From an uncultured Solirubrobacterales bacterium (GTDB lineage: Bacteria > Actinomycetota > Thermoleophilia > Solirubrobacterales > 70-9): a stretch of DNA of 64,000 bases. A program made the position numbers and the translations under genes. Under the pieces are notes generated by a model, which ran no database searches, had not been told where the DNA came from, and saw nothing but the letters and a program-made list of their open reading frames with translations. This document shows, piece by piece, positions 4,758-59,335 of the stretch (positions are counted from its first letter, which is position 1; the number at the start of each line of letters is the position of its first letter). The stretch is taken from positions 14,622-78,621 of the forward strand of contig CAVUZA010000001.1 of assembly GCA_963745915.1 (NCBI GenBank), read 5' to 3'.

Positions 4758-5471
4758 GTGCGCTCCAAGGACGACGTGCGCAAGGACGTCTGGAAGGCGA
4801 TGGACCGGGCAGGCGTCTCGCGCTTCCCGGGCGCCGAGGGACGGATCCCCAACTTCGCCGGGGCCAAGCTGGCGGCCGAGAAGCTGGCCGGCCACCGGCT
4901 CTGGAAGCGGGCGCGGGCGATCAAGGCCAACCCCGACTCGCCGCAGACCCACGCCCGCCGCATGGCGCTGGAGGAGGGCAAGGTCGTGATCATGGCCGTG
5001 CCCCGCCTGCGCGACCCCCACCCGTTTCGCGTGCTCGACCCGAAGAAGCTCTCCAAGCGGGCGATCAAAGAGGCCTCGACGATCAAGGGCGCGCTCAAAC
5101 ACGGCCGCGTCACCGCCCTCGACGAGCTGCCCGAGATCGACTTCGTCCTCTGCGGCTCGGTCGCCGTCAACCTCAGCGGCGCCCGGGTCGGCAAGGGCGG
5201 CGGTTACTCCGACCTCGAGTACGGGGTGCTGATCGACGCCGGCAAGATCGACGACCACACCACGGTGGCGACCACCGTGCACCCGACCCAGGTGCTGCGC
5301 CGCCACCTGATGATGACCTCCCACGACCTGCCGGTCGACGTGATTGCCACGCCGCGCGCGGTGATCGAGGTCGAGCGCCAGTACGAGCGCCCGCGCGGCA
5401 TCCTCTGGGACCACCTGCAACCGCCCCAGATCCGGGAGATACCCATACTCGAACGTATGGGCTATGCCTGA
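4758..5471 (+). CDS. 5-formyltetrahydrofolate cyclo-ligase family protein
   Basis: 237 aa. RIPNFAGA, LCGSVAVNLSGARVGKGGGYSDLEY and the overall length fit the 5-FCL-like fold. Confidence 0.75.
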   Translation: MRSKDDVRKDVWKAMDRAGVSRFPGAEGRIPNFAGAKLAAEKLAGHRLWKRARAIKANPDSPQTHARRMALEEGKVVIMAVPRLRDPHPFRVLDPKKLSKRAIKEASTIKGALKHGRVTALDELPEIDFVLCGSVAVNLSGARVGKGGGYSDLEYGVLIDAGKIDDHTTVATTVHPTQVLRRHLMMTSHDLPVDVIATPRAVIEVERQYERPRGILWDHLQPPQIREIPILERMGYA

Positions 5472-11371: not shown

Positions 11372-12226
11372 CTACTCACCAGTGGATGAAGGATTGTGCG
11401 CGCCATGCGCGGACAATCCTTCATCGAGGCCGAAGACGTCGACGGGTCCCGCCCCCTCTCCAATGGAGCTGAGGCCGTTGGCCACCGCGTCGCTCGCGAT
11501 CCGGTTGGCTTGGCGGGCGGCCTCCAGGGGCGTGAGGCCGAGGGCGAGGTGGGCGGCGAGGGCGGAGGAGTGGGTGCAGCCGGAGCCGTGGGCGGCGCCG
11601 TTCTCGTGACGCTGGCCGGCGATCTCCTCCGCCTCGCGCCCGTCGAAGAAGAGGTCGACCAGGCGCTCGCTGTGGCCGCCGGTGACGACCACCGCGCGCG
11701 GACCGAGCGCCAGCACCTCGCGCGCCAGATCCTCCTGGGAGTGCGGCTCCTCGGAGCCGGTCAGGGCGATCGCCTCGGGGATGTTGGGGGTGACGACGGT
11801 GGCCAGCGGCAGCAGGCGCTCGACCAGGGCGGCGCGGGCGTCCTCGGCCAGCAGCACGGCGCCGCTCTCGGCGACCATCACCGGATCGACGACGACCGGC
11901 GCCTCGCCGAGCATGCTCAGCGCCTCGACCACCGCCTCGACCGTCTCCGCCGTGCCCAGCATCCCGACCTTGACCGCGTCGACGCCGATGTCGTCGGCGA
12001 CCGCTCCCACCTGGGCCAGGATCGTCTCCGGCGAGACCGCCTCGACCGCCTCGACCCCGACCGTGCTCTGCGCCGTGATCGCGGTCACCGCCGTCATCCC
12101 GTGCACGCCGCAGCGCGCGAACGCCTTCAGGTCCGCCTGTATCCCCGCCCCACCGCCGGAGTCCGAGCCGGCGATCGAGAGCACCGCTGGAACGCGCTCC
12201 TGGCTCATGCCCCGCACCCTAGACAC
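11372..12226 (-). CDS. thiD: Hydroxymethylpyrimidine/phosphomethylpyrimidine kinase
   Basis: 284 aa. [31 protein letters not shown], ...[15 protein letters not shown]. Alternative start MSQE at 12208. Confidence 0.9.
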
Positions 12227-19877: not shown

Positions 19878-19898
19878 CCGAACGCCGACTCTACGGGA

Positions 19899-19946
19899 CT
19901 GACTTCCCGGTTTGGGACGAAATTGCGCCCCAAACCAGGAAGTCAG
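19899..19946. repeat. 48-nt hairpin-forming inverted repeat between the ftsY stop and the ffh start
   Basis: CTGACTTCCCGGTTTGGG / 12-nt loop / CCCAAACCAGGAAGTCAG. The 18-nt arms have one mismatch. It is AT-richer than its surroundings. Confidence 0.8.
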
Positions 19947-19949
19947 CCC

Positions 19950-27237: not shown

Positions 27238-27262
27238 TGAGCGGAGCATGGTAGCGGGTCGA

Positions 27263-27339
27263 GAGAGCGCCGGGCGCCCCTGTCAAAACGCTCGGCAGGA
27301 GCCTCGCTTGAGTGTTTTGACAGGGGCGCCCGGCGCTCT
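27263..27339. repeat. Copy B (inverted orientation) of the family-1 palindromic repeat
   Basis: AGAGCGCCGGGCGCCCCTGTCAAAAC / centre GCTCGGCAGGAGCCTCGCTTGAGT / GTTTTGACAGGGGCGCCCGGCGCTCT. The arms pair perfectly. It lies between the yceD stop (27352) and the rpmF start. Confidence 0.85.
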
Positions 27340-27351
27340 TCCGTCCTCTGC

Positions 27352-27903: not shown

Positions 27904-28422
27904 ATGGGTTGCCGCCGAGATTACGGAATGAGCCGATTCGACTGGACACCGGAGGTCTACCTGGAGCGCATCCGCGCCCAGCTGCCGCGCTACGACGAGC
28001 TGCAGGAGCAGGCGATCGCCGCGATCCCCTTCCCGCCCGCCCGCGTGCTCGAGCTGGGGATGGGCACCGGGGAGACGACCCGGCGCCTGATCGAGGCCTA
28101 TCCCGAGGCCTGGGTGATCGGCCTCGACTCGAGCCCCGACATGGTCTTCCGCGCCCGCCAGACCTACGACGACGTGCAGCTGGCCCGCATGGAGGACCCG
28201 CTCCCCGACGGCCCCTGGGACCTGGTCATCTCAGTCCTCTCGGTCGCCGACCTGACCGACGACCAGCTCCAACCCCTCTGCCGCCGCATCAAGGAGCACT
28301 CCAAGTCCCTCGTAGTGGCAGACACCTTCGAGGAGGAAAAGCTAAAAGCCCTCCTAACCTGGTCAGACGCCAAAATCTCCTGGCAAGCCGACGACCTGGC
28401 CGTAGCAGTAGCGACGTATTGA
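27904..28422 (+). CDS. Class I SAM-dependent methyltransferase
   Basis: 172 aa with motif I VLELGMGTGETT. Alternative start MSRFDW at 27928. Confidence 0.75.
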   Translation: MGCRRDYGMSRFDWTPEVYLERIRAQLPRYDELQEQAIAAIPFPPARVLELGMGTGETTRRLIEAYPEAWVIGLDSSPDMVFRARQTYDDVQLARMEDPLPDGPWDLVISVLSVADLTDDQLQPLCRRIKEHSKSLVVADTFEEEKLKALLTWSDAKISWQADDLAVAVATY

Positions 28423-28500
28423 GAGAGGCCGGGCGCCCCTCCCAAAACACTCCAGCGAGGCTCCTGCCGAGCGTTTTGGGAGGGGCGCCCGGCCTCTCCC
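28421..28500. repeat. Copy C of the family-1 palindromic repeat
   Basis: GAGAGGCCGGGCGCCCCTCCCAAAAC / centre ACTCCAGCGAGGCTCCTGCCGAGC / GTTTTGGGAGGGGCGCCCGGCCTCTC. The 26-nt arms are perfect. It sits between convergent stops at 28422 and 28510. Confidence 0.85.
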
Positions 28501-28509
28501 GCTAAGACG

Positions 28510-29001
28510 CTATTCCTGCTGATCCAGGTCGACGACGGGCTGCTGCTGCTCGTCCTCGTCCCGCCCAGCCAACCGGTCCCGCCCCCGCTGCACCGCAGCG
28601 AGGAACTTCTGCAGATTCACCTCGAGCGTGTTGAGGATCTCGTCGGCGTAGTCCTCGGCGCCGAGCCGGATCTCGCGCTCGCGGGTGCGGGCGTCCTCGA
28701 CGATCTCGTCGGCGGCCCGCTCGGCCTGCTTGGTTACCTCCTCGTCGGAGATCAGGCGGGCCTGCTGCTCGCGCGCCTCGCGCACGATGCGCTCGGCCTC
28801 GCGCTTGGCCTCGGCCAGCATCTCCTGGCGCTCCTTGACGATCCAGCGCGCCTGCTTGATCTCCTCGGGGATCGTCGCCCGCATCTGGTCGAGCAGGTCG
28901 TAGATCTCCTCGCGATCGACGCGCACCTGGTCCGTGAGCGGCACCGGCCGCGCGTTGTGGACCACGTCGTCGAGCTTGTCTATTAGAACGAGAACGTCCA
29001 T
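28510..29001 (-). CDS. Conserved coiled-coil protein of unknown function
   Basis: 163 aa. MDVLVLIDKLDDVVHNARPVPLTDQVRVDREEIYDLLDQMRATIPEEIKQARWI, then a charged coiled coil. Relatives are often auto-annotated as ATP-synthase-subunit-like. No function can be supported from the sequence. Confidence 0.6.
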   Translation of the reverse strand: MDVLVLIDKLDDVVHNARPVPLTDQVRVDREEIYDLLDQMRATIPEEIKQARWIVKERQEMLAEAKREAERIVREAREQQARLISDEEVTKQAERAADEIVEDARTREREIRLGAEDYADEILNTLEVNLQKFLAAVQRGRDRLAGRDEDEQQQPVVDLDQQE

Positions 29002-32397: not shown

Positions 32398-35300
32398 TCA
32401 CAGCATCCATCCCTGAAGTGGCATCCACTTCTGCACTCGCGAATTGCCCGAGTCGAGGACCCAGAAGTCACCATTTTTCGCCAGGGCGATCCGGAGCCAG
32501 GAGCGAGTATCGAACTGCCCTTCGCCGGAGCCGGCCTGCCCGAACTTGGTGATGAATTCGCCAGATTCATTGAATACCTGAATTCGATTGGCTTCTGCAT
32601 CGGCTGCCCAAACGTAGCCCCGATCGTCAACCGCGATATCGGTGATCTCGGTGAACTGGCCGTCGCCGGTGCCCTGAGAGCCGAATCGTTGTAGCACGTT
32701 GCCTTCCTGATCCACGAGCGCAATTCGGCGCCGCCAATGTTCGGCGACCCAGAAGTTGCCGTTCGGCGCCAAGTCGATGGCCCATGGCTTACCCAGGAAG
32801 CCCAGCGAAAGCGATTTGACGTATTCGTCGGCCGGGTTGAACTTATCAATGCGGTCCGCTTCGTAGTCGGCGACCCAGATGTTGTCGCTGGAGTCGACCA
32901 ACACGTCGACCGGGAACGCGACCTGACCGGGTTCCCGCCCGTAGGTCGCCAGGGTGGCGAGCAGCTGCCCGGTGCGGCTGTACTTGACCAGCCGATTTCC
33001 CATCCCACAGACCACGTAGATATCTCCGTTGGAGTTGACCGAGGAGGCAAGCGGGTCGTTGCAAGTCGCGAACTGGCTTAGGTATTCGCCCGATTTCGAG
33101 AAGTTCTGCAAACGGTCGTTACCCCCATCCGCGACCCAGAGCGTCCCATCGGTGGAATCGACCGATACGCCCGCAGCGTATTCGAACTGACCGTCACCGT
33201 GCCCTTCGCTGCCGAATGTGGAGTCATAGGTAGGCGAAAAGCTTCGCCCACTCCACTTCTGCACTCGCGAATTGCCCGAGTCGAGGACCCAGAAGTCACC
33301 ATTTTTCGCCAGGGCGATCCGGAGCCAGGAGCGAGTATCGAACTGCCCTTCGCCGGAGCCGGCCTGCCCGAACTTGGTGATGAATTCGCCAGATTCATTG
33401 AATACCTGAATTCGATTGGCTTCTGCATCGGCTGCCCAAACGTAGCCCCGATCGTCAACCGCGATATCGGTGATCTCGGTGAACTGGCCGTCGCCGGTGC
33501 CCTGAGAGCCGAATCGTTGTAGCACGTTGCCTTCCTGATCCACGAGCGCAATTCGGCGCCGCCAATGTTCGGCGACCCAGAAGTTGCCGTTCGGCGCCAA
33601 GTCGATGGCCCATGGCTTACCCAGGAAGCCCAGCGAAAGCGATTTGACGTATTCGTCGGCCGGGTTGAACTTATCAATGCGGTCCGCTTCGTAGTCGGCG
33701 ACCCAGATGTTGTCGCTGGAGTCGACCAACACGTCGACCGGGAACGCGACCTGACCGGGTTCCCGCCCGTAGGTCGCCAGGGTGGCGAGCAGCTGCCCGG
33801 TGCGGCTGTACTTGACCAGCCGATTTCCCATCCCACAGACCACGTAGATATCTCCGTTGGAGTTGACCGAGGAGGCAAGCGGGTCGTTGCAAGTCGCGAA
33901 CTGGCTTAGGTATTCGCCCGATTTCGAGAAGTTCTGCAAACGGTCGTTACCCCCATCCGCGACCCAGAGCGTCCCATCGGTGGAATCGACCGATACGCCC
34001 GCAGCGTATTCGAACTGACCGTCACCGTGCCCTTCGCTGCCGAATGTGGAGTCATAGGTAGGCGCGCCTATCGTTGTAAACGATTCCGCTTCTCCGACCG
34101 AAACGCCTTCCGGACTCGAGGCCGTAGCCCGATAGTAGTAAGTCGTCTCCGGTTCCAGGCCAGAGACGAAGGTTTGAACATCGATCGGCTGGTCCCCGTC
34201 GCCGATGCCTTCAGGACTACCTGGGGTTGTCACGGCGTGATCGAAGCCGTGCTCGTCACCAAGTGTTTTGATGTCTTCAAAATACGTATCGGCATCGACA
34301 TACTGCGCCTGCCAGGCCGTTTCGTACCCTTGCGGGTTGATCTTCGCCGGAAGCCACGCAGATTCCTCAGCCGGCGCGACTACCGGCGCCGGGTCGATCG
34401 TGGGCTCTTTTCGTTCGGTCCCTGTGACATAGATCGCGCCAGGCGACGTGACCGTCAACGCAGGCGACATGCGAATCGGCGTATCCGTATTCAACCATGG
34501 GCATTCAGAACCAGCCGCCTCGCCAAGATTCGTCGAGCCCCTGACCAGTGCTGGGTTTCCGCCAGCCAGGTTGGTCGATTCCCCGTCCCACTCAATGCTG
34601 CAGTCGACCGGGACCGCCGCCGTCGGACAGGAGACATCAAAACCTGTTTCCCCTGCAGGCCTTAGCCGACCTTCGCTTCCGAAACGCCAGCTCAATGTCG
34701 CCGCAACCGGCAGCCCGCTCATGGTGACTGTGCATTCAGCTCCACCGAGCTCGCTGCACCCGCCAAATGCCCAAGAGGAAATCGACATCGACAGCGGGTG
34801 GCCCGCCGTCGCGCTATTTGAGAACTCGAGCGTCGATTCCGAGCAGGACACTCTGTCCAATTCAGCGTAAATAGTGAATTCATCGCCGCTGGCGGAGATC
34901 GTCGTCCCCGAGTCGAACCGATCCGGCAGACTGCACGTGAGCTGGGACGTTTTGCACAGAGTGGTTCCCCATTCCGGTGTCTGAACCAACTCTGGCCCGA
35001 AGGCACGCCCAGCACTCGATGTTTTGTAGCCGTTGGATGGAATCCTTGCCACAAGTCGATAGCGGTCTGCGAGCGTCGCCGCGCCTTCCGTAGCTTCTTG
35101 TGTCACATGCACAAGCGACGTCCCGCTCGTCGACACCGACCCCGTCGCCTTAGACCATCCAGTCGATCTGTGATATTCGAAATAATATTCGACTTCCGGA
35201 TAAGGCGACGGTTCCACATCGCCCTCCAGGATGACGGTCCCCGTCGATCCGAGTTCCATCGTCGCGGGACCGATGATATTGAGGGTCGGCGGTTCGGGGT

Positions 35301-45379: not shown

Positions 45380-45981
45380 GGCCGCTCCTTCCGGGCGGAT
45401 GGCTCCGCCAGTCGCTCAACATACTTGGCCACCAGATCGCACTCGACGTTGATCCGGTCCCCCGGCTTCAGCGCGCCGAGGCTGGTCCGCTCCAGGGTCT
45501 CGGGGATCAGGGAAACGGCAAGCCAAGAATCGCCCAAATCGGCGATCGTCAGGCTGACCCCGGCGAGCGCGACCGAGCCCTTGTCGATCGCGTAGCGCAG
45601 CAGCCCCGGCTCGAGCCCGACCCGCAGGCGGCGGGCGAAGCCGTCGTCCTCGAGCGCGAGCACCTCGCCCACGCCGTCGACGTGGCCCTGGACGATGTGG
45701 CCGCCGAGCCGGTCGGAGGCGCGCAGCGCCAGCTCCAGGTTGACGCGGGCGCCGGGCTCAAGGCCGTCAAGGGCGGTGACCGCCAGCGTCTGGTTCATCG
45801 CCTCGGTCGCGAAGCCCTCGCCGTCGACCGCGGTCGCGGTCAGGCAGACGCCGTCGACCGCGACCGAGTCGCCCTCGCCGACCTGCGGCGCCAGCGCCGT
45901 CGCGATCCGCAGCCGGGCGCCCTCCTCGCCGCGCTCGAGCGCGGCGACGGTGCCGACGTCCTGGATCAGCCCGGTGAACAT
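45376..45981 (-). CDS. ribE: Riboflavin synthase alpha chain
   Basis: The ATG at 45979-45981 shares one base with the rib[28 protein letters not shown], and a second repeat [10 protein letters not shown]. Confidence 0.92.
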
Positions 45982-47084
45982 CACCACTCCCGGAAGCGGG
46001 TCTCGATCAGCGTGTCCTCCGCCCGCGGGTCGAGCGGCTCGGTGCGGCCGCCGCCGAGCAGGAGCGGGGCGACGAAGACGCGCGCCTCGTCGACCTGGCC
46101 GGCGGCGGCGAAGGCGGCGGCCAGGGTGCGGCCCCCCTCGAGCAAGAGGCTGGTGAGGCCGCGGCGGCCGAGCTCGGCGAGGGCGGCCTCGACCCCGTCG
46201 GCGACCAGCACCTCCGCCCCGGCGTCGCGCAGGGGCGCGGCGTCGGCCTCGGGCGCGACGACGACGAGCAGCGGCGACTCGTCCAGCGTCGCCAGCAGCC
46301 GCGAGTCGAGCGGCGTCCGCGCCCGGCGGTCGAAAACCACCCGCAGCGGCTGCCGCACCCCCGTCCCCCCCGTTCCGGTGCGCTTTTTGCTCTCCATAGG
46401 TACATAAGGCGCACCGGAAGCTTCGGGGCGGGCGGTTAGCAGCGGGTCGTCGGCGAGGACGGTGCCGATGCCGACCGCGATCGCGTCGGATTCGGCGCGC
46501 CAGCGATGGACCAGCTCGCGGCTGGGCTCGCCGGAGATCCAGGGCGAGTCGCCCGGCGCGGTGGCGGTCTCGCCGTCGAGCGAGATCGCCAGCTTCAGCG
46601 TCACCAGCGGCAGGCCGGTGCGGGCGTGCTTGCGGAAGGGCTGGTTGAGCAGCCGCGCGGCGCTCGCCTCCTCGCCCGCGGCCAGCTCGACCGCGACGCC
46701 GCCGTCGCGGAGGATGCCCGGTCCGCGGCCGGACGCCTTCTCGCTGGGGTCGTCGGAGGCGACCACGACGCGGGCGACGCCGGCCTCGAGCAGCGCCTCG
46801 GTGCAGGGCGGCTGGCGGCCGCTGTGGGCGCAGGGCTCGAGCGTCACGTAGATCGTCGCCCCGGCCGGGTCCGCGCCGCGCGCAGCGCAGTCGGCCAGCG
46901 CCGCGCGCTCGGCGTGCAGGCCGCCGAGCTCGGTGTGCCAGCCCTCGCCGATCGTCTCGCCGTCGCGGACGAGGACGGCGCCGACCAGGGGGTTGGGGCT
47001 GACCCGTCCCCGGCCGCGCTCGGCCAGCTCGAGCGCCCGCTGGAGATGCTCCCGATCAGTGCCTGTGAGCTGGGGATTCATCAT
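45981..47084 (-). CDS. ribD: Bifunctional diaminohydroxyphosphoribosylaminopyrimidine deaminase / 5-amino-6-(5-phosphoribosylamino)uracil reductase
   Basis: NPLVGAVLV, HAERAAL, TLEPCAHSGRQPPC, then the reductase half. Tandem ATGs at 47084 and 47081; the track start at 47099 is TTG. The gene contains the 47-nt element at 46373-46419. Confidence 0.92.
   Translation of the reverse strand: MMNPQLTGTDREHLQRALELAERGRGRVSPNPLVGAVLVRDGETIGEGWHTELGGLHAERAALADCAARGADPAGATIYVTLEPCAHSGRQPPCTEALLEAGVARVVVASDDPSEKASGRGPGILRDGGVAVELAAGEEASAARLLNQPFRKHARTGLPLVTLKLAISLDGETATAPGDSPWISGEPSRELVHRWRAESDAIAVGIGTVLADDPLLTARPEASGAPYVPMESKKRTGTGGTGVRQPLRVVFDRRARTPLDSRLLATLDESPLLVVVAPEADAAPLRDAGAEVLVADGVEAALAELGRRGLTSLLLEGGRTLAAAFAAAGQVDEARVFVAPLLLGGGRTEPLDPRAEDTLIETRFREW
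46373..46419. repeat. Family-2 47-nt palindromic element, embedded in frame in ribD
   Basis: TTCCGGTGCGCTTTTTGCTCTCCATAGGTACATAAGGCGCACCGGAA. Its termini match the copy at 54064-54110. It is a local AT-rich patch encoding SGAPYVPMESKKRTGT. Confidence 0.8.
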
Positions 47085-53182: not shown

Positions 53183-53430
53183 ACCGGCCTCAGCATCGAG
53201 CCGCCGCAGATCTGGCAGGTCATGTCCTCGGTGGAGCTCATCCGGGCGATGGTTTGGTGCTCGCCGCAGTCGGGGCACTGCGAGACGAGCTCGAAGCGGC
53301 GCAGACAGTACACGCAGCGCAGGCGGCCGGGCAGCTGGGTCGGGCGCAGCCAGGGCTCGCCGCAGCCCGGGCAGGGCGCCCGGCGCATGAAATCCCCCTC
53401 GCTGCCTCCCTCACTCATCGCGACCATCAT
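53179..53430 (-). CDS. Small Cys-rich zinc-ribbon protein
   Basis: CPGC...CVYC...CPDC...CQIC (four CxxC pairs). The stop overlaps the rpe ATG (ATGA). Start is uncertain (53430, 53418 or 53388). Confidence 0.6.
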   Translation of the reverse strand: MMVAMSEGGSEGDFMRRAPCPGCGEPWLRPTQLPGRLRCVYCLRRFELVSQCPDCGEHQTIARMSSTEDMTCQICGGSMLRPV

Positions 53431-54751
53431 CGCGAAGCCGCCAGATGAAGAAGCCGGTGGTCCCGTCCCGGTCCGGGCGCAGCTGCCGCGACTCGCCGCC
53501 CTCCACCTGCGCCTGGTTCTCGCGGCGGCTGATCGTGCAGGTCGAGTAGACCAGCGTGCCGCCGGGCCGCAGCGCGGCGCGGGCGGCGGCGAGCAGCTCG
53601 GCCTGCAGCGCGGCGAGGCGCTCGATCGCGGCCGGCGACTTGCGCCAGCGGGCGTCGGGGCGCGAGGCCAGGGCGCCGAGGTCCGAGCAGGGCGCGTCGA
53701 GCAGGACGCGGTCGAAGACCGGGCCCATCCCGGCGGCGGCGCCGGCGTCCGCCTCGAGCACGGTGACGCTGCGCAGCCCGAGGCGCTCAGCCTGGGCGGC
53801 GACTTCGGCGGCCCGCTCGGCGTCGCTCTCGACCGAGATCAGCTCGCCACGGTCGCCGGTGCGGGCGGCGATCTGGCCGGTCTTGATCCCCGGCCCGGCG
53901 CAGAGGTCGAGCACCCGCTCCCCCGGGCGGGGGTCGAGGGCCTCGACCGCGGCCGCAGAGCCGCGGCTCTGCGGCGTCAGCTCGCCGGCCGCGACCAGCT
54001 CCGGGACCGCGTCGCCGGTGCGCCCCTCGACCACGATCAGCTCGCCGTCCCCGCCCGAGCCGGTTCCGGTGCGCTTTATGCCGGCATCTCCGGCATAAAG
54101 CGCACCGGAAGGGATTTCGGCGGCGCGGGCGTCGACGCCGGCGGCGCGGAGGCGCTCGAGGACGGACTCGCGGCCGCTGCGCAGGGTGTTGACTCGGTAG
54201 GCGTGCTCGGGCGGCTCGTTGCAGGTGGCGAGCAGCGAGCGGGCGTCGTCGGCGCCCAGCTCCTGCCACCACATCCGGGCCAGCCAGAGCGGCGCGGAGT
54301 GGGCGACGGCGGCGGCCTCGGGGGTCGAGTCGTCGCCGAGCAGGGCCTCGGTCAGCGCCGCGCGCTCGCGGGCGGCACGGCGCAGGACGGCGTTGACGAA
54401 GCCGGCCGCGTGGGCGGCGCCGGCGCCCTTGGCCAGCTCGACCGCCTGGCCGACGGCGGCGTGGTCGGGGGTGGCGTCGGCGAAGAGCAGCTCGTAGAGG
54501 CCGAGCCGCAGGGCGGCGAGCACCGGCGGGTCGAGCCGCTCCGGGGGGCGCTCGGCGAGGCGCCCGATCGCCGCGTCGGCGGTGCCGCGCCGTTGCACGG
54601 CGCCGTAGGCGAGGCGCTGCGCCTGGGCGCGCTCGCGGCCGTCGAGGCCGCGCTCGGCGGCGGCGGCGCGGAAGGCGCGCTCGGTGTGGGCGCCGTCCTC
54701 GAAGCTCGCCCGCAGGACGGCGAAGGCGAGCTCGCGCGCCGGCGAGATCAC
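53411..54751 (-). CDS. rsmB: 16S rRNA (cytosine967-C5)-methyltransferase RsmB
   Basis: The GTG at 54749-54751 overlaps the fmt stop (GTGA). NusB-like N-terminus, LDLCAGPGIKT, LLDAPCSDLG, LVYSTCT. The gene contains the 47-nt element at 54064-54110. Confidence 0.9.
   Translation of the reverse strand: MISPARELAFAVLRASFEDGAHTERAFRAAAAERGLDGRERAQAQRLAYGAVQRRGTADAAIGRLAERPPERLDPPVLAALRLGLYELLFADATPDHAAVGQAVELAKGAGAAHAAGFVNAVLRRAARERAALTEALLGDDSTPEAAAVAHSAPLWLARMWWQELGADDARSLLATCNEPPEHAYRVNTLRSGRESVLERLRAAGVDARAAEIPSGALYAGDAGIKRTGTGSGGDGELIVVEGRTGDAVPELVAAGELTPQSRGSAAAVEALDPRPGERVLDLCAGPGIKTGQIAARTGDRGELISVESDAERAAEVAAQAERLGLRSVTVLEADAGAAAGMGPVFDRVLLDAPCSDLGALASRPDARWRKSPAAIERLAALQAELLAAARAALRPGGTLVYSTCTISRRENQAQVEGGESRQLRPDRDGTTGFFIWRLRDDGRDE
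54064..54110. repeat. Family-2 47-nt palindromic element, embedded in frame in rsmB
   Basis: TTCCGGTGCGCTTTATGCCGG-CATCT-CCGGCATAAAGCGCACCGGAA. The 21-nt arms are perfect. It encodes SGALYAGDAGIKRTGT. Confidence 0.85.
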
Positions 54752-56395: not shown

Positions 56396-56438
56396 GCGTT
56401 CGCCTTTTGTCGGGCAGAGGTCGACAAAAGACGAACGC
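56396..56438. repeat. 43-nt hairpin between the priA stop and the def start
   Basis: GCGTTCGCCTTTTGTCG / 9-nt loop / CGACAAAAGACGAACGC. The 17-nt arms have one mismatch. Confidence 0.75.
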
Positions 56439-59262: not shown

Positions 59263-59335
59263 TGGAGCTGGGGGGACTCGAACCCCCGACCTACGCGCTG
59301 CCAGCGCGTCGCTCTTCCAGCTGAGCTACAGCCCC
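59263..59335 (-). tRNA. tRNA-Ala (anticodon GGC), CCA not encoded
   Basis: GGGGCTGTAGCTCAGCTGGAAGAGCGACGCGCTGGCAGCGCGTAGGTCGGGGGTTCGAGTCCCCCCAGCTCCA. Cloverleaf folded by hand. G3:U70 Ala identity pair, 7-nt anticodon loop CTGGCAG, TTCGAGT T-loop. Confidence 0.93.

Follow-up and report, generated by a model that had tools for sequence, protein, structure and literature searches.

The ribD gene of an uncultured Solirubrobacterales bacterium carries a short palindrome in frame, and this locus raises the question of what kind of element it is and how a protein-coding gene comes to accommodate it. The initial annotation, made on a 64,000-nt stretch of contig CAVUZA010000001.1 (hereafter the window), had described a 47-nt palindromic element with inverted-repeat termini in ribD and a second one with the same termini and total length in rsmB. 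Both were recovered, the first exactly as quoted and the second as another 47-nt copy with identical 11-nt termini (Table 1). The ribD 47-mer and its rsmB twin are probably solo copies of a REP/MITE-like hairpin family that is specific to Solirubrobacterales and has a cognate nuclease unit.

Table 1. Copies of the hairpin element in the window, their host genes and associated features.
Feature	Position	Strand	Description
Hairpin element copy 1	46373..46419	-	Window sequence TTCCGGTGCGCTTTTTGCTCTCCATAGGTACATAAGGCGCACCGGAA; in frame in ribD, phase 2, peptide SGAPYVPMESKKRTG; model score 62 bits, E 4e-12
Hairpin element copy 2	54064..54110	-	Window sequence TTCCGGTGCGCTTTATGCCGGCATCTCCGGCATAAAGCGCACCGGAA; in frame in rsmB, phase 2, peptide SGALYAGDAGIKRTG; 67 bits, E 4e-13
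ribD, host of copy 1	45981..47084	-	367 aa as called in P0001
rsmB, host of copy 2	53411..54751	-	446 aa as in P0121
G-rich stretch CGGGGGGGACGGGGGTG	46356..46372	-	Adjoins copy 1 on the sense-strand 3' side
Weak hairpin upstream of def	56398..56436		Inner CCTTTTGT...ACAAAAGG motif, 14 bits, E 0.34

The two host ORFs were identified by Pfam as RibD (dCMP_cyt_deam_1 and RibD_C) and RsmB (NusB, RsmF-B_ferredox, and Methyltr_RsmB-F). Each copy is on the coding (minus) strand of its host, and, as first proposed, the two genes read the element in one phase, which gives the peptides SGAPYVPMESKKRTGT and SGALYAGDAGIKRTGT. The description of the ribD element as an AT-richer patch also stands, with a G+C content of 53% in the ribD copy and 60% in the rsmB copy vs. 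72–78% in the surroundings. The arms of the rsmB copy pair perfectly over 21 bp around a 5-nt loop (z = -7), and the ribD copy has intact 11-nt termini together with a degenerate apical stem and centre. The RibD insert sits in the reductase domain between LLTAR and RQPLRVVFD, and the RsmB insert in the linker joining the ferredoxin-like and methyltransferase domains.

A search for the terminus pattern with up to three mismatches in 22 specified bases returned two matches in the window against 0.00 expected from 100 shuffles, and at least 119 further loci exist elsewhere, so the likeness of the rsmB copy is beyond chance. Coincidence in DNA of high G+C content, or an artefact of assembly, has next to no probability as the source of the likeness between the window copies, given that no shuffled match is expected and that more than 140 independent copies occur across genomes and metagenomes of different projects. 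An unfiltered covariance-model search of the whole 64-kb window returned no third copy and only the weak hairpin upstream of def, which shares the inner motif of the family, has different outer arms and termini, and may be a degenerate relative. The G-rich stretch next to the ribD copy holds 9 nt (three codons) that are missing from other filled RibD loci and looks like the G-rich tail of the stop-adjacent copies described below.

Other repeats were also noted in the window. A second and longer palindromic family, probably the one that the initial annotation called family 1, occurs at 1769–1860, 27257–27346, and 28404–28517 with 34–49-nt arms sharing CGGGCGCCCCTCCCAAAACACTC, and its copy at 28404–28517 lies between two convergent ORFs. 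An exact 300-nt direct repeat (32424–32723 and 33252–33551, 828 nt apart) is contained in the only low-G+C stretch of the window (58–63%, at 32–36 kb), and this region may have been acquired recently or be mobile. Two strong palindromes lie outside the 47-nt family, one at 19896–19949 (27-nt arms, no spacer) and one at 11385–11425 (19-nt arms, 95% complementary). The sole Rfam match at the gathering threshold in the window is a tRNA gene (59263–59335, minus strand).

The family was described from a scan of one genome per species with the pattern TTCCGGTGCGC-N15-45-GCGCACCGGAA, which returned at least 119 stretches in at least 49 species-level MAGs, so the search of relatives that had been suggested did reveal further copies. 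The carrier MAGs listed are all labelled Solirubrobacterales, except for one Actinomycetota and one Chloroflexota label. Every sequence is different among the 125 copies listed, of which 123 are exactly 47 nt long. Their 11-bp stem base (TTCCGGTGCGC/GCGCACCGGAA) is invariant among these copies, which come from a scan with this terminus pattern; the termini read TTCCGG.../...CCGGAA, and the inverted repeats are exact over 11 nt and extend to 21-nt arms. Inward of the fixed termini there is an A/T-rich segment (YTTWT/AWAAR) followed by a 5–6-bp G/C-rich apical stem, which varies among copies and stays complementary through compensatory substitutions. At stem positions 17–20, 192 double-sided changes were counted vs. 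approximately 90 in shuffles, with none of 500 shuffles reaching the observed number, and 91% of the alignment cells are paired vs. 34–56% when the partner column is slid. Mismatches cluster at positions 12-36 (C.A or T.G) and 15-33 (T.T or A.A), and this concentration makes the element polar; once oriented, its flank consensus is ATGAGC-core-GGGG.

A family-model search of 772 kb added only four slightly diverged copies, and degenerate copies are almost nil. The copies listed are singletons save for a few tandem pairs, with at least eight copies in one 2.99-Mb chromosome and two in the 64-kb window. Rfam searches at gathering and permissive thresholds returned no matching family and only sub-threshold matches to microRNA-like hairpins, and a full-text literature search for the order together with palindromic repeats, the terminus sequence, and DUF559 returned no description of this family.

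The copies occupy a narrow range of positions relative to genes. A gene end lies within 15 nt of about 90 of the 125 copies listed, most commonly at a spacing of 2 nt, and in 40 of the copies, exactly 2 nt separate a stop codon from the 5' side of the core. Of these 40 stop-adjacent copies, 34 have an ATG or GTG that overlaps the stop (xTGA), and in 32, a mini-ORF runs to a TGA that is part of the start (RTGA) of the gene downstream. The bridging mini-ORF is 20–24 codons long and encodes the peptide M-S/T-F-R-C-A-F-x6-H/D-K-A-H-R-K/N-G..., while a G-rich, Shine-Dalgarno-like tail of 9, 12, 15, 18, or 30 nt extends from the core to the next start, lengths that preserve the frame at the junctions. 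The gene pairs bridged in this manner include tpiA-gpmI, truB-ribF, nuoF-nuoG, and one gene together with rubredoxin. GC following RTGA was considered as a target motif and was not convincing, with a frequency of approximately 48% at filled junctions vs. 35% at ordinary overlap junctions.

Another group of copies, approximately 21 of the 125 listed (~17%), lies in frame inside eight unrelated genes, where phases 0, 1, and 2 and both orientations occur. The hosts are RibD (six genomes), RsmB (three genomes), PmbA/TldD, DUF3866, a PHP-glycosyltransferase (PHP-GT4), a P-type ATPase, a membrane protein, and one ORF of no assigned identity; where domains are known, the inserts are interdomain or in a loop. 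Copies persist only at sites where genes are left unbroken, and these are of three kinds: 2 nt past a stop codon; at ATGA stop/start overlaps, where the mini-ORF and the Shine-Dalgarno-like G-rich tail would restore translational coupling; and in frame within protein loops or interdomain linkers.

The history of the ribD and rsmB copies can be followed in their orthologues. Among the 120 closest RibD homologues (69–100% identical), about 100 have the arrangement LLTAR-P-x-[SGA.Y/F-6 aa-K/R-RTG]-T-D/E-x-RQP, 12 are empty (347–348 aa), approximately nine are decayed at a similar length, and two (P0047 and P0056) possess tandem double inserts in one loop, for instance PSPSGAA-RPSPSGALYPPIEEKRRTGT. 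Three of the 120 closest RsmB homologues are empty, being 45 nt (15 aa) shorter, and these empty alleles keep GCTTCCG. The initial annotation had counted about 16 extra residues; the added segment is real, and its size is 15 aa in RsmB and 17 aa (51 nt between filled and empty DNA) in RibD, reaching 20 aa (60 nt) in the present genome with its extra 9-nt G-rich stretch. Sharing of the insert by unrelated taxa was not borne out, and the RibD orthologue alignment revealed filled, empty, decayed, and tandem-double states within the same order, as it did for RsmB. One genome (locus L120) has an empty ribD, yet contains a family copy elsewhere (L061). The ribD and rsmB copies are old enough to be common to most relatives.

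The location of the RibD insert at a variable loop, as had been suggested, was supported by alignments to solved RibD structures, in which the loop at this place varies in length; the copy adds 17–20 residues to it. An AlphaFold model of RibD, built with 69 close homologues, has a mean pLDDT of 62 with the whole reductase half below 50, and is uninformative on the loop. The use of all three phases in different hosts, together with empty or decayed orthologues, fits the RibD and RsmB inserts being tolerated in-frame passengers, which would make them neutral to their hosts. Selection could alternatively act on the encoded peptide SGAxY...KRTGT as an interaction or modification site in RibD and RsmB, and its SGA and KRTG residues are indeed kept in 58 of 120 RibD and 83 of 120 RsmB closest homologues. 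This is very improbable, since other hosts read the other two phases (LPVR...GAPE and FRCA...KAHRK), there is hardly any constraint on the seven residues at the centre, even where two proteins are 95% identical, some alleles are empty or decayed, and most copies are never translated within a protein.

Filled and empty states were also compared at an ABC-transporter junction, where L041 is empty with a plain ATGAGC overlap and L043 reads GTGAGC-core-30 nt-ATGAGC with the hexamer duplicated. L119 (copy at 5334–5380) has a shorter filled form, in which the downstream gene has lost approximately 22 of the N-terminal codons that are present in L041 and L043. Duplications that might mark a target site are the hexamer at one junction and CCGAC in one RibD locus, and in RsmB there is none; neither a transposition event nor an unambiguous target-site duplication was seen among the RibD, RsmB, and ABC-transporter junction alleles. 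The neighbour-joining order of the RibD homologues was not robust enough for counting gains and losses. The family is putatively mobile.

The centres of the copies turn over faster than their ends. Orthologous RibD and RsmB copies retain intact 11-nt termini even where their host genes have diverged by 20–25%, whereas RsmB proteins that are 94–97% identical outside the insert share only one or two of the seven central residues; some central peptides are common to the RibD and RsmB sets. Two rsmB alleles of 93% identity have identical element termini and 25-nt centres that differ at approximately 56% of positions, so replacement or recombination must act, and not point mutation alone. The raised divergence in these alleles reaches tens of bases past the element, which indicates that ordinary allelic recombination may contribute. 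The same extent of the divergent tracts makes it less likely that the centres turn over solely by cassette swapping within a genome.

Conserved termini around changing centres in orthologous copies could also mean selection on the element itself, and the hairpins, those in ribD and rsmB among them, might then be cis-elements with a function for the host and not selfish DNA. Possible roles are those of a binding site (operator or hairpin) for the wHTH nuclease-like protein described below, an mRNA stabiliser, or a translational-coupling module. Such a role would agree with an invariant stem base and position-specific mismatches at more than 100 loci, with the great rarity of degenerate copies, with the reading frame kept at junctions, and with a strict polarity relative to genes, the sense-strand RNA hairpin being the weaker one in 35 of the 40 stop-adjacent copies. 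The destabilising C.A and U.U mismatches are on the mRNA-sense strand, however, and the copies have no terminator-like T run. Empty, decayed, and doubled RibD and RsmB alleles among close relatives, the functionally unrelated host genes and junctions, and the occurrence of three phases and both orientations inside genes also speak against selection for a host function, which is considered unlikely. A REP/MITE-like, putatively mobile hairpin family with a cognate nuclease other than RAYT is preferred.

In four species-level MAGs (L005, L006, L102, and L113), the element bounds a gene of approximately 295–310 aa, which has a copy at either end in L005, L006, and L102; in L113, where the contig end cuts the gene, the 3' copy alone is seen. 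The bounded gene has atypical codon usage and Pfam matches to AbiEi_4 (wHTH) and DUF559/REase_MTES_1575 (Vsr-like, PD-(D/E)xK), and no Pfam match to Y1_Tnp (Y1 HUH transposase) was found in it. Copy pairs spaced by approximately 960 bp were also considered as mere gene-length spacing, which holds for L023 (oxidoreductase); in L005, L006, and L102, they are the nuclease unit. A metagenome scan with the nuclease protein identified 22 loci, 20 of them with a full-length homologue (65–100% identical), and paired element copies surround the gene in all 20. The distance from the end of the 5' copy to the aligned start is a constant 24 nt, a few bases separate the stop from the 3' copy, and the unit is 1005–1015 nt long.

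The true start of the nuclease gene is an ATG or GTG within the loop of the upstream hairpin, whose 3' arm encodes the N-terminus M-x-x-K-R-R-T-G-S. A corresponding N-terminus (M-x-x-K/R-R-R-T-G-S) is present in at least 89 of the 120 closest homologues by pattern and in approximately 105 by eye, and the nuclease motif E.D...IE.DG..TH is kept in at least 95% of homologues. The two ends of a unit evolve in concert: the central 25 positions show a median of four differences within a locus vs. 10 between loci (p = 2.6e-9), the paired copies match sometimes in the direct and sometimes in the inverted version, and rare terminus variants, such as GGTGTGC in L143 and GGTGCGA in L139, appear in both copies of one unit. 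The unit is found in at least three unrelated genomic contexts, and most loci share one common syntenic context, from which it follows that the unit moves rarely if at all.

Several variants of this arrangement were observed. In L132, L134, and L135, tandem copies (2361–2407 and 2431–2477, 70-nt period) lie 5' of the nuclease gene, and the tandem-copy centres of L134 and L135 differ from the centre of the 3' copy. A conserved leader, GGGGGGCGAA-N5, is directly upstream of the 5' copy of the unit (L149:2404–2425, with equivalents in L130-L148 and in all three contexts), and in L149, it belongs to a perfect palindrome, GTTCGCCCCCCGGGGGGCGAAC. In L087, a 40%-identical AbiEi/DUF559 paralogue (415–1320) follows a different perfect hairpin with a 14-bp stem (347–397), a hint that other AbiEi/DUF559 subfamilies may have their own hairpins. 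In another locus, L042, an element copy and, immediately 3' of it, an N-terminal piece of a DUF559-like gene occur at 2584–2861; the C-terminal domain (4935–5402) is 2 kb off, past an inverted H+-pyrophosphatase gene, and the locus is apparently a rearranged second nuclease unit.

The family thus has a unit of ~1.0 kb, made up of a wHTH + DUF559 nuclease gene between paired copies, the upstream one of which holds the start codon of the gene, and this unit may be the master element of the family. By analogy with REP elements and RAYT, the nuclease would service the hairpin repeats, recognising the hairpin and generating, moving, or homogenising its copies. Vsr-type enzymes nick at T:G mismatches, and the conserved T.G of the hairpin suggests, as a speculation, a recognition mode for the nuclease. 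More tentatively still, and with considerable doubt, the hairpins and the wHTH/Vsr-like nuclease could constitute a new REPtron-like class that operates by T.G-guided recognition of the extruded hairpin, nicking, and short-patch resynthesis or copying, through which solo copies would spread and hairpin centres would be homogenised or replaced. This reading would explain the fixed termini, the fast-changing complementary apical stems, and the concerted ends.

Among known repeat systems, REP elements are the closest for comparison; they comprise GTAG- and CGTC-tagged superfamilies of 20–40 nt that form a REPtron with a RAYT transposase (PMC3733652; PMC2817692). Like REPs, the present family is a short, imperfect, dispersed palindrome with conserved mismatches, its copies lie up to 20 nt from the 3' ends of ORFs, where the adjoining genes are unidirectional or convergent, and some are read in frame as part of a gene. 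As in a REPtron, one protein-coding gene lies between two copies that match the dispersed ones, with concerted ends in the present case. Unlike REPs, the copies are 47 nt long with 21-nt arms, lack a GTAG or CGTC tag and instead have the TTCCGG.../...CCGGAA termini with ATGAGC and GGGG flanks, and, among those listed, are mostly singletons rather than REPIN/BIME doublets. REPs exceed 100 copies per genome, whereas the copy number here, for which the count in the 2.99-Mb chromosome is a lower bound, appears low. The flanked gene encodes a wHTH + PD-(D/E)xK (DUF559/Vsr-like) protein in place of a Y1 HUH transposase, and its start codon lies inside the upstream hairpin, in which it also departs from a REPtron.

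The palindromic elements of Rickettsia (RPEs; Alphaproteobacteria) are approximately 100–150 bp long (reviewed in PMC10969869). The initial annotation had likened the ribD copy to these mobile elements that survive inside ORFs, and the comparison is fair as regards palindromic repeats that lie in frame in unrelated housekeeping genes, add a peptide where the protein tolerates it, and have been inherited across related species. It does not extend to the usual habitat, which here is behind stop codons and at operon junctions, with only ~17% of the copies listed being intragenic; the family is further set apart by size and host, with 47 nt and 15–17 residues in Solirubrobacterales. MITEs, such as Chunjie of Geobacter (cited in PMC10969869), also have terminal inverted repeats and can sit in an operon without disrupting it, but they usually measure 70–300 bp and have clear target-site duplications and a recognisable parent IS. 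A search of approximately 1 Mb for a parent IS with the ends of the family found no isolated termini, and the only gene bounded by such ends was the DUF559-type nuclease gene.

The initial annotation had also known of no description of such an element in high-G+C Gram-positive lineages. This holds for the present family, but a partial analogue exists in the MIRUs of mycobacteria, which Supply et al. reportedly described in 1997 as intercistronic in operons. MIRUs are 40–100-bp non-palindromic units in tandem arrays (VNTR), and they contain a small ORF that starts over the stop codon of one neighbouring gene and stops over the start codon of the next, so that translation stays coupled. The two share a high-G+C Gram-positive host and a mini-ORF that overlaps the stop and start of its neighbours, as in the 32 stop-adjacent copies above, and they differ in that the present family consists of single palindromic hairpin units in another bacterial order. 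MIRUs are not known to occur in frame inside proteins or around a nuclease gene. Single features of the family thus have precedents in REPs, RPEs, MIRUs, and operon-neutral MITEs, whereas their combination with a PD-(D/E)xK-type cognate gene has none, as far as found.

The hairpins represent a new repeat family in an abundant and almost unstudied order of soil Actinomycetota, and this one family displays three modes of coexistence with dense coding: behind a stop codon, as a gene-bridging ORF, and as an in-frame protein loop. For genome annotation, the inserts explain lineage-specific loops of 15–20 residues in RibD, RsmB, and other proteins as well as mis-called starts at operon junctions. 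The unit also provides a concrete candidate, open to testing, for an enzyme other than RAYT that would service palindromic repeats, and if the proposed part of the nuclease is true, one or more subfamilies of the AbiEi_4-DUF559 proteins, which are widespread and uncharacterised, would gain a function.
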